A stretch of 64,000 bases of DNA from Azolla caroliniana (lineage: Eukaryota; Plantae; Polypodiophyta). Numbering within the stretch: position 1 is the stretch's first letter; each line of letters starts with the position of its first letter. The notes under the pieces are model-generated. The model worked only from the letters and a program-made list of their open reading frames with translations, was not told the DNA's origin and made no database searches. A program made the position numbers and the translations under genes. The DNA lies in NCBI GenBank assembly GCA_043228905.1, contig JBHGNT010000002.1, forward strand, positions 15,996,001 through 16,060,000. The letters are read 5' to 3'. Positions 30,201 to 30,798 of the stretch are shown piece after piece.

Positions 30201-30798
30201 GCTCCTCTTCAGGGAGAAGGAAATCCTCCTTTCCAACTCGTAGCTTCCCCTTCGTCTCTTTGGTGAAGTCATGACCTATCTTCTTCGGATCTCTTAAGCT
30301 TGGATCGTTAGCGACTTCCTTCATCTTTTGCCAGCTATCTTCCGGTAGGAAGATAGCTGGCACCGCAACTGGCTTGATCTTCTTATCCACCGTTTTATAT
30401 TTGGTGTTGATGTCAGCTTCCTTCATCGAGATGCCACGACGGTATTCATCGATGATAGCATACATGTTGACGGAGTTAACTAAAATCACGCGTTGATTGT
30501 GAAGATAGCTCAAGTCCACGACGTCCTCGATTTCGCCGATGGTGTCGTTAAATGAGGCTTCTTCCATAATATGAGTCACGAACTCTCCTTCTTCTATTAT
30601 GTTCTCTTCTTTCAGCATCTTCTCGAATTCTTGTATCCGGCTCTTGTGCTTCTTGTCAGGTAGTACTAGTTTACATGCGCCACTAGGTGTGACACATGTT
30701 GCTTCTCCTTGCAATCCACGCACTCTTCTTTCTTGTGGGGTCTTGTGATCGCTCGGACTATTTGTGCCCCATGCTTCAATAGTCCGCTCTAAAAATCC
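27296..30798 (-). pseudogene. Element C pol (RT, RNase H, IN); one in-frame TGA at 28540 and one frameshift near 27905
   Basis: IQDLQPVN, LPQGATNS, PFLDD, TVDTSPTGIG, GHRG..C..C, NGKIERGH, WFGPY. Confidence 0.93.

Follow-up and report, generated by a model that had tools for sequence, protein, structure and literature searches.

How the polymerase of a retrotransposon can be made when its coding region lies out of frame with gag is the question raised by a junction in the window, by which we mean the whole 64-kb stretch of Azolla caroliniana DNA analysed here. On the minus strand a gag-protease (gag-PR) frame stops directly behind the heptamer G_GAU_UUU, and pol follows in the -1 frame. An earlier note had read this arrangement as a -1 ribosomal frameshift site with an H-type pseudoknot, and the comparison with relatives bears this out to a large extent: the element type, the frame relation and the conservation of heptamer and spacer are direct observations, as is the covariation of both stems across divergent families. 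On this comparative basis, we consider it very probable that translation of Phygy elements enters pol through a programmed -1 ribosomal frameshift on G_GAU_UUU.

The element that carries the junction (element E) is a Ty3/gypsy retrotransposon of 7923 bp (7.9 kb) at 26204-34126 of the minus strand. A 4-bp CCGG target duplication, which fits the NCGN form, is present on both flanks, and the LTRs are 1.6% divergent, as compared with 8% in element F, a second copy in the window. The primer-binding site corresponds to the 3' end of tRNA-Trp genes in the genome, all four loci scanned (out of 62 pattern matches) being called as tRNA-Trp. The upstream frame encodes a DUF4100-like Gag, with a match below the curated cut-off, and then a protease-like region whose DHGS motif was identified by eye; Pfam recognises RT, RNase H and integrase in the element along with a weak SH3, and the same search found no chromodomain. 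Its named protein relatives belong to Physcomitrium, Riccia and Adiantum, and it may also be linked to the fungal Ylt1 elements, which are similar. The order GAG-PROT-RT-RH-INT, with neither a chromodomain nor an extra RNase H, is that of the Phygy lineage, whose row in Neumann et al. 2019 (PMC6317226) gives an NCGN 4-bp duplication, tRNA-Trp and a size of 7656-9968 bp; element E shares these three features as well as an interior filled by coding region and relatives in Physcomitrium. Judged by target duplication, primer site, size and domain order, the junction thus belongs to a Phygy-lineage Ty3/gypsy retrotransposon. The available part of the Phygy entry gives the ORF organisation as not determined and does not mention frameshift signals, whereas in element E GAG-PROT overlaps RT-RH-INT and a conserved signal lies at the overlap.

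Table. Location of the junction features and of the elements that carry them (window coordinates, except for the last line)
Feature	Position	Strand	Remarks
Slippery heptamer G_GAU_UUU, element E	30792..30798	-	kept in 48/50 distinct E-family copies fetched
gag-PR stop TAG, element E	30789..30791	-	directly 3' of heptamer, within 6-nt spacer
Predicted pseudoknot stem 1, 5' arm, element E	30778..30786	-	
Predicted pseudoknot stem 1, 3' arm, element E	30754..30762	-	
Predicted pseudoknot stem 2, 5' arm (in stem 1 loop), element E	30767..30771	-	
Predicted pseudoknot stem 2, 3' arm, element E	30736..30740	-	
Heptamer and stop, element F (older Phygy family)	57660..57669	-	heptamer kept in 23/30 F-family copies
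Predicted pseudoknot, element F	57604..57656	-	stem 1 57656-57649/57633-57626; stem 2 57643-57638/57609-57604
5' LTR of element E	33055..34126	-	CCGG target duplication flanking
3' LTR of element E	26204..27223	-	16 differences to 5' LTR in 1020 aligned bases
Primer-binding site, element E	33031..33047	-	complementary to tRNA-Trp
gag-protease frame, element E	30789..32996	-	DUF4100; aspartic-protease-like DHGS motif
pol (RT, RNase H, integrase), element E	27296..30816	-	-1 frame relative to gag-PR
Sister family copies	L205-L239, L254-L256 (this genome); L146, L153 (metagenome)		

The heptamer, the TAG, both stems and the second site in element F were all found on the minus strand where the earlier note had placed them (Table), and the sequence GGATTTTTAG occurs exactly twice in the window, once at each junction. 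The -1 frame of element E is indeed open into pol, starting at 30816 and running for 758 codons through RT and RNase H. Stem 1 folds better than shuffled sequences in both elements, with z = -5.3 in E (matched by 0 of 200 shuffles) and z = -3.7 in F (by 1 of 200). The claim that the gag-PR frame ends at the heptamer holds as to the stop itself, but in this copy of E a premature TGA at 30893-30891 closes the frame 33 codons upstream of the heptamer; pol contains further stops (28542-28540 and 27906-27904) and a change of frame near 27920. Ribosomes would therefore not reach the shift site in this copy. Element F is more decayed than E and is interrupted by a nested element, a younger gypsy at 51204-56409 which lies in its pol gene, has LTRs 2.4% apart and carries an RT-RNase H ORF. 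Both copies in the window are dead, and the mechanism would act in intact members of their families. Contigs at the junction in three RNA runs were short and of uncertain type.

Within this genome, the best-scoring matches to the E family comprise 50 distinct copies, of which 48 have the heptamer, 50 stem 2 and 41 a perfect stem 1. As the queries for the E and F families included the shift site, these copy counts show inheritance of the frame break and not selection on it. A distant protein led to a third family of the genome (30 loci), in which the stem sequences differ but the signal is the same. A wider view was obtained from metagenome loci, for which an alignment of the protease region, and not the motif, served as query, and the best 80 of 189 loci were fetched; most belong to a single series of related accessions and hence do not count as independent samples. 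Of these best 80, 77 allowed the gag stop to be located and 67 had a pol match, leaving 13 uninformative. The pol frame is open across the gag stop in 62 of the 67, and five are broken at the junction. At 60 of the 62 intact junctions the second ORF occupies the -1 frame and continues without a stop across the shift site, and in the other two pol is in the +1/-2 frame. A zero-frame heptamer of the X_XXY_YYZ type, with G_GA tolerated, is present in 59 of the 60 loci with the -1 relation (GGAUUUU in 52, GGAUUUC in 4, GGGUUUU in 2 and GGUUUUC in 1), the odd one being A_GAU_UUU in L104.

The stop itself is less constant than the heptamer, being TAG, TAA or TGA among relatives, and in one branch (L141, L164, L169, L170) it lies five codons after the heptamer, inside stem 1, while heptamer and 6-nt spacer stay in place. 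The protein of this branch ends in [DG]F-xxx-P[LF], as do relatives in Physcomitrium and Adiantum. Among 118 gag-PR relatives, 28 lack a readable end; the remaining 90 end in D/G-F (60), [DG]F-xxx-P[LF] (23), QVF[DY] (2) or otherwise (5). One of the first two endings is thus found in 83 of 90, against a background of 0.4%, despite a spread of about 20 residues in tail length. The Physcomitrium, Riccia and Adiantum proteins share this conserved ending, in their case as a trace at the protein end alone.

For the structure downstream of the heptamer we aligned 28 representatives less than 85% identical to each other, picked as junction-intact and with two deletion copies (L185 and L210) dropped; the two window sites stand in for their closest relatives. 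The conserved core of stem 1 aligns gapless, with its start 6 nt downstream of the heptamer in all -1 families. The earlier note had placed its start at 5 nt, which must be corrected, since the first C-G pair exists in only 9 of the 28 representatives. Over the eight core pairs, 218 of 224 cells are paired, with double changes at six pairs, as compared with 26-46% pairing in slid controls. Stem 2, aligned in the best register for each sequence, scores 16.5 with its own partner and 13.7 with swapped partners (0 of 20000 permutations), and G-C to A-U exchanges occur at three positions; the controls for both stems ignore relatedness. It is weak in L157 and L147. The pseudoknot score averages 37.7 (minimum 29) over the 28 sites and 15.6 (maximum 33) over 112 downstream coding windows. 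Both stems therefore covary across these representatives, a check that the earlier note had proposed across copies. Of the compensatory changes which it had seen between E and F, one is a true double change (U-A to C-G) and the others amount to one wobble and one added pair, so that the covariation evidence proper comes from the relatives. An Rfam scan of 30500-31000 with E up to 5 gave no match, and no relative was found among viral contigs. With the predicted structure at a 6-nt spacing in all -1 representatives, within the 5-9 nt expected of a 3' stimulator, the H-type pseudoknot likely stimulates frameshifting at G_GAU_UUU.

In such a mechanism, most ribosomes would terminate on the codon that follows GAU UUU, releasing Gag-PR, and a minority would pause at the pseudoknot while the two tRNAs re-pair one base back (GAU UUU to GGA UUU), producing Gag-PR-RT-RH-IN. 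Capsid and protease would thereby be made in large excess over polymerase, and Pol would be carried into the particle. PMC5009743 documents heptamers of the G_GA type as well as spacers of 5-9 nt.

Other routes to pol have to be weighed against this one. The nearest accepts frameshifting but has it driven by the stem 1 hairpin, together with the stop codon, stem 2 pairing having some other role, for instance as a kissing contact between molecules in genome dimerisation or packaging. Indeed, covariation is blind to whether stem 2 pairs within or between molecules, the stop codon 3' of the G_GAU_UUU site of pea enation mosaic virus strongly affects shifting (PMC5009743), and stem-loops have been reported to replace a pseudoknot (PMC3203594). 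However, an H-type fold within one molecule requires a loop 2 such as that found in nearly all 28 representatives, about 11-16 nt long, and several families without an adjacent stop still keep both stems, which makes this alternative rather unlikely. Decay or assembly error with a motif arisen by chance would agree with the random stops in both window copies, but the same frame relation and motif recur in the E family (48 of 50 copies), the F family (23 of 30), the third family (30 loci) and dozens of distant families; the comparison of families refutes this reading, and we give it practically no weight. Stop-codon readthrough is rejected as well, the zero frame being closed within 50 codons in all 28 representatives.

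The earlier note had named splicing and internal initiation as the routes that would overturn the frameshift, and no conserved signal for either was found. A spliced mRNA lacking the gag stop has its model in Ogre, where GAG-PROT is split from RT-RH-INT and joined to it by splicing (PMC6317226), and the site of the sister family described below contains AG|GU. Yet GGAU, the sequence at most sites, offers no GU donor, and there is no non-coding gap, as in all 28 representatives (picked as junction-intact; 62 of 67 when unselected) the pol frame alone stays open for 50 codons beyond the site; also, the linker of the sister lineage is under purifying selection (dN/dS 0.19). Splicing is for these reasons very improbable. 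Hardly more can be said for a free Pol protein made by internal initiation, reinitiation or from a subgenomic RNA, for which separate Pol expression in foamy viruses is a precedent (PMC3196705). An AUG in the pol frame just 5' of the gag stop does occur in both sister-lineage families, but 9 of 26 families have a +1-frame AUG at the same place without being able to use it, so that two out of two is near chance, and its position varies. In the -1 families the overlap contains an AUG in 0 of 26, the first downstream AUG falling anywhere from codon 3 to 111, and this route leaves the heptamer and its fixed spacer unexplained.

A distinct scenario is found in the two metagenome loci with pol in the +1/-2 frame, L146 and L153, which read CAG_GUU_UUU_(G/U)AC_UAG. 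This sister family is also present in the genome under study, where its motif has 100 exact matches against 0 for the control, and AG_GUU_UUU together with pol in the +1/-2 frame is present in all 20 copies retrieved by protein search. Of three full-length copies examined, two have identical LTRs, a gag-PR of 739 codons and a pol of 1154 codons, and the third is broken; an ACGG target duplication was seen in one copy. Between L146 and L153, dN/dS is 0.07 in pol and 0.19 in the linker, and the knot (22 codons) shows about one third of the synonymous change seen elsewhere. Judged from these sequences, the family is young and its pol under purifying selection. Stem 1 starts 5 nt after GUU_UUU, 1 nt closer than in the -1 families, and counted along the pol frame, U run and knot occupy the same places in both.

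Slippage by -1 is rejected for the sister family, as its -1 frame closes after two codons. A -2 slip from GUU UUU to AGG UUU would end where the -1 slip ends, and we lean towards pol being made in this way at AG_GUU_UUU, bearing in mind that only two families with the +1/-2 arrangement are known and that AG|GU might serve as a weak splice donor. A +1 slip on UUU_U is possible and ranks below the -2 slip: the rarer form of the site has UUU_U, but the common one has UUU_G, which re-pairs poorly. In the pol tree, midpoint-rooted, the sister lineage forms one well-supported clade among the -1 families, and its derived status rests on parsimony; this was a quick tree with some rows mis-framed by decay, and our conclusions do not lean on it. 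With moderate confidence, we suggest that the direction of frameshifting switched within one lineage, G_GAU_UUU giving way to AG_GUU_UUU with the pseudoknot one base closer, towards an RNA-structure-driven -2 shift for pol. L252 and L253 share a variant, AA_GAU_UUU_GAC, that fits both the -2 and the +1 slip poorly, the frame relation of pol being unchanged in L252; these copies may have been copied in trans, or may be evidence against a -2 shift. Two other sister derivatives, L244 and L245, have an open gag-PR frame of 758 codons that runs straight into the 3' end, with neither frameshift site nor pol.

Comparison with known systems places the two sites differently. In Rous sarcoma virus, whose gag-pol site comes closest among retroviral -1 cassettes, the protease is encoded in the first ORF (gag), as in the Phygy junction. 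The likeness extends to a heptamer right where the first ORF closes, a spacer of 5-9 nt, a 3' pseudoknot and pol in the -1 frame (PMC5009743), but here the carrier is a non-infectious plant retrotransposon, the heptamer is G_GAU_UUU and the compact two-stem knot has no Rfam match. The same review confirms G_GA heptamers in dianthoviruses and umbraviruses, in line with the earlier note, which had named GGAUUUU as the dianthovirus (RCNMV) slippery heptamer; these viruses share the heptamer, the plant ribosomes and a stop close behind, but their stem-loop pairs with a site about 4 kb away, whereas here the partner lies 12-16 nt from stem 1. As to the sister family, RG_GUU_UUU is the -2 frameshift site of arterivirus nsp2TF (PMC5644247), and AG_GUU_UUU stands in the same phase with the second ORF in the +1/-2 frame. 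The arterivirus stimulator is a protein complex bound to a C-rich motif, with no part for RNA structure, whereas the sister family has a covarying predicted pseudoknot 5 nt downstream and its product would be the essential polymerase; by analogy, the site would work like the arterivirus -2 type without being a member of it. In engineered -2 shifting, the optimum lies at spacers 1-2 nt shorter than for -1 (PMC3458567), and the sister spacer is likewise 1 nt shorter than in its -1 relatives. Trichomonas vaginalis viruses offer a precedent for a family divided between -1 and -2 shifting (PMC5009743).

As such, -1 gag-pol frameshifting is textbook knowledge in retroviruses and animal gypsy elements. 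A survey of gag-pol recoding from 2003 (Gao et al.) is cited here after a 2016 review. For plant LTR elements the available part of that review (PMC5009743), citing the survey, gives only +1 arrangements. The statement that most plant LTR elements use a single gag-pol ORF agrees with PMC6317226, although Tcn1, Selgy and some SIRE elements overlap; its available part gives neither direction nor signal for these overlapping ORFs and reports none for Phygy. Searches of openly accessible literature brought up no account of a frameshift in moss gypsy or Phygy elements, and the passages available of PMC7466625 and PMC2864245 contain none. The present -1 signal runs through a lineage of non-seed plant elements, with protein-level traces in liverworts and ferns, and offers dozens of natural variants of a 60-nt cassette ready for reporters. 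The most valuable part of the finding is the pairing of -1 and likely -2 cassettes, which differ in one spacer base and the slip motif and make the direction and size of a slip, a long-standing mechanistic question, directly testable with natural sequences; a true -2 shift would provide a natural, replicating test of the spacer-tension model. If confirmed, these would be the first -2 frameshift in a retroelement and the first pseudoknot-driven -1 shift in plant LTR elements. For annotation pipelines, such a frame break should be read as functional and not as the sign of a dead element.

Some further observations concern the surroundings of element E. It is hosted by a gypsy element at 23666-45207 with RT on the minus strand, both LTRs of which contain a primer-site-like stretch starting with TGG, on opposite strands. 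At 41245-44922 (minus strand) lies a 3.7-kb non-autonomous element of Phygy type, with an ACGC duplication, a tRNA-Trp primer site, LTRs 0.6% apart and, without pol, a single gag-like ORF of 724 codons with a repetitive K/R-rich tail. Elsewhere in the genome, tRNA-Trp-like 3' ends form tandem clusters at C8:17796786-17823371, C16:4989495-5105637 and C5:10105608-10112201, those on C8 being spaced by about 1.2 kb.
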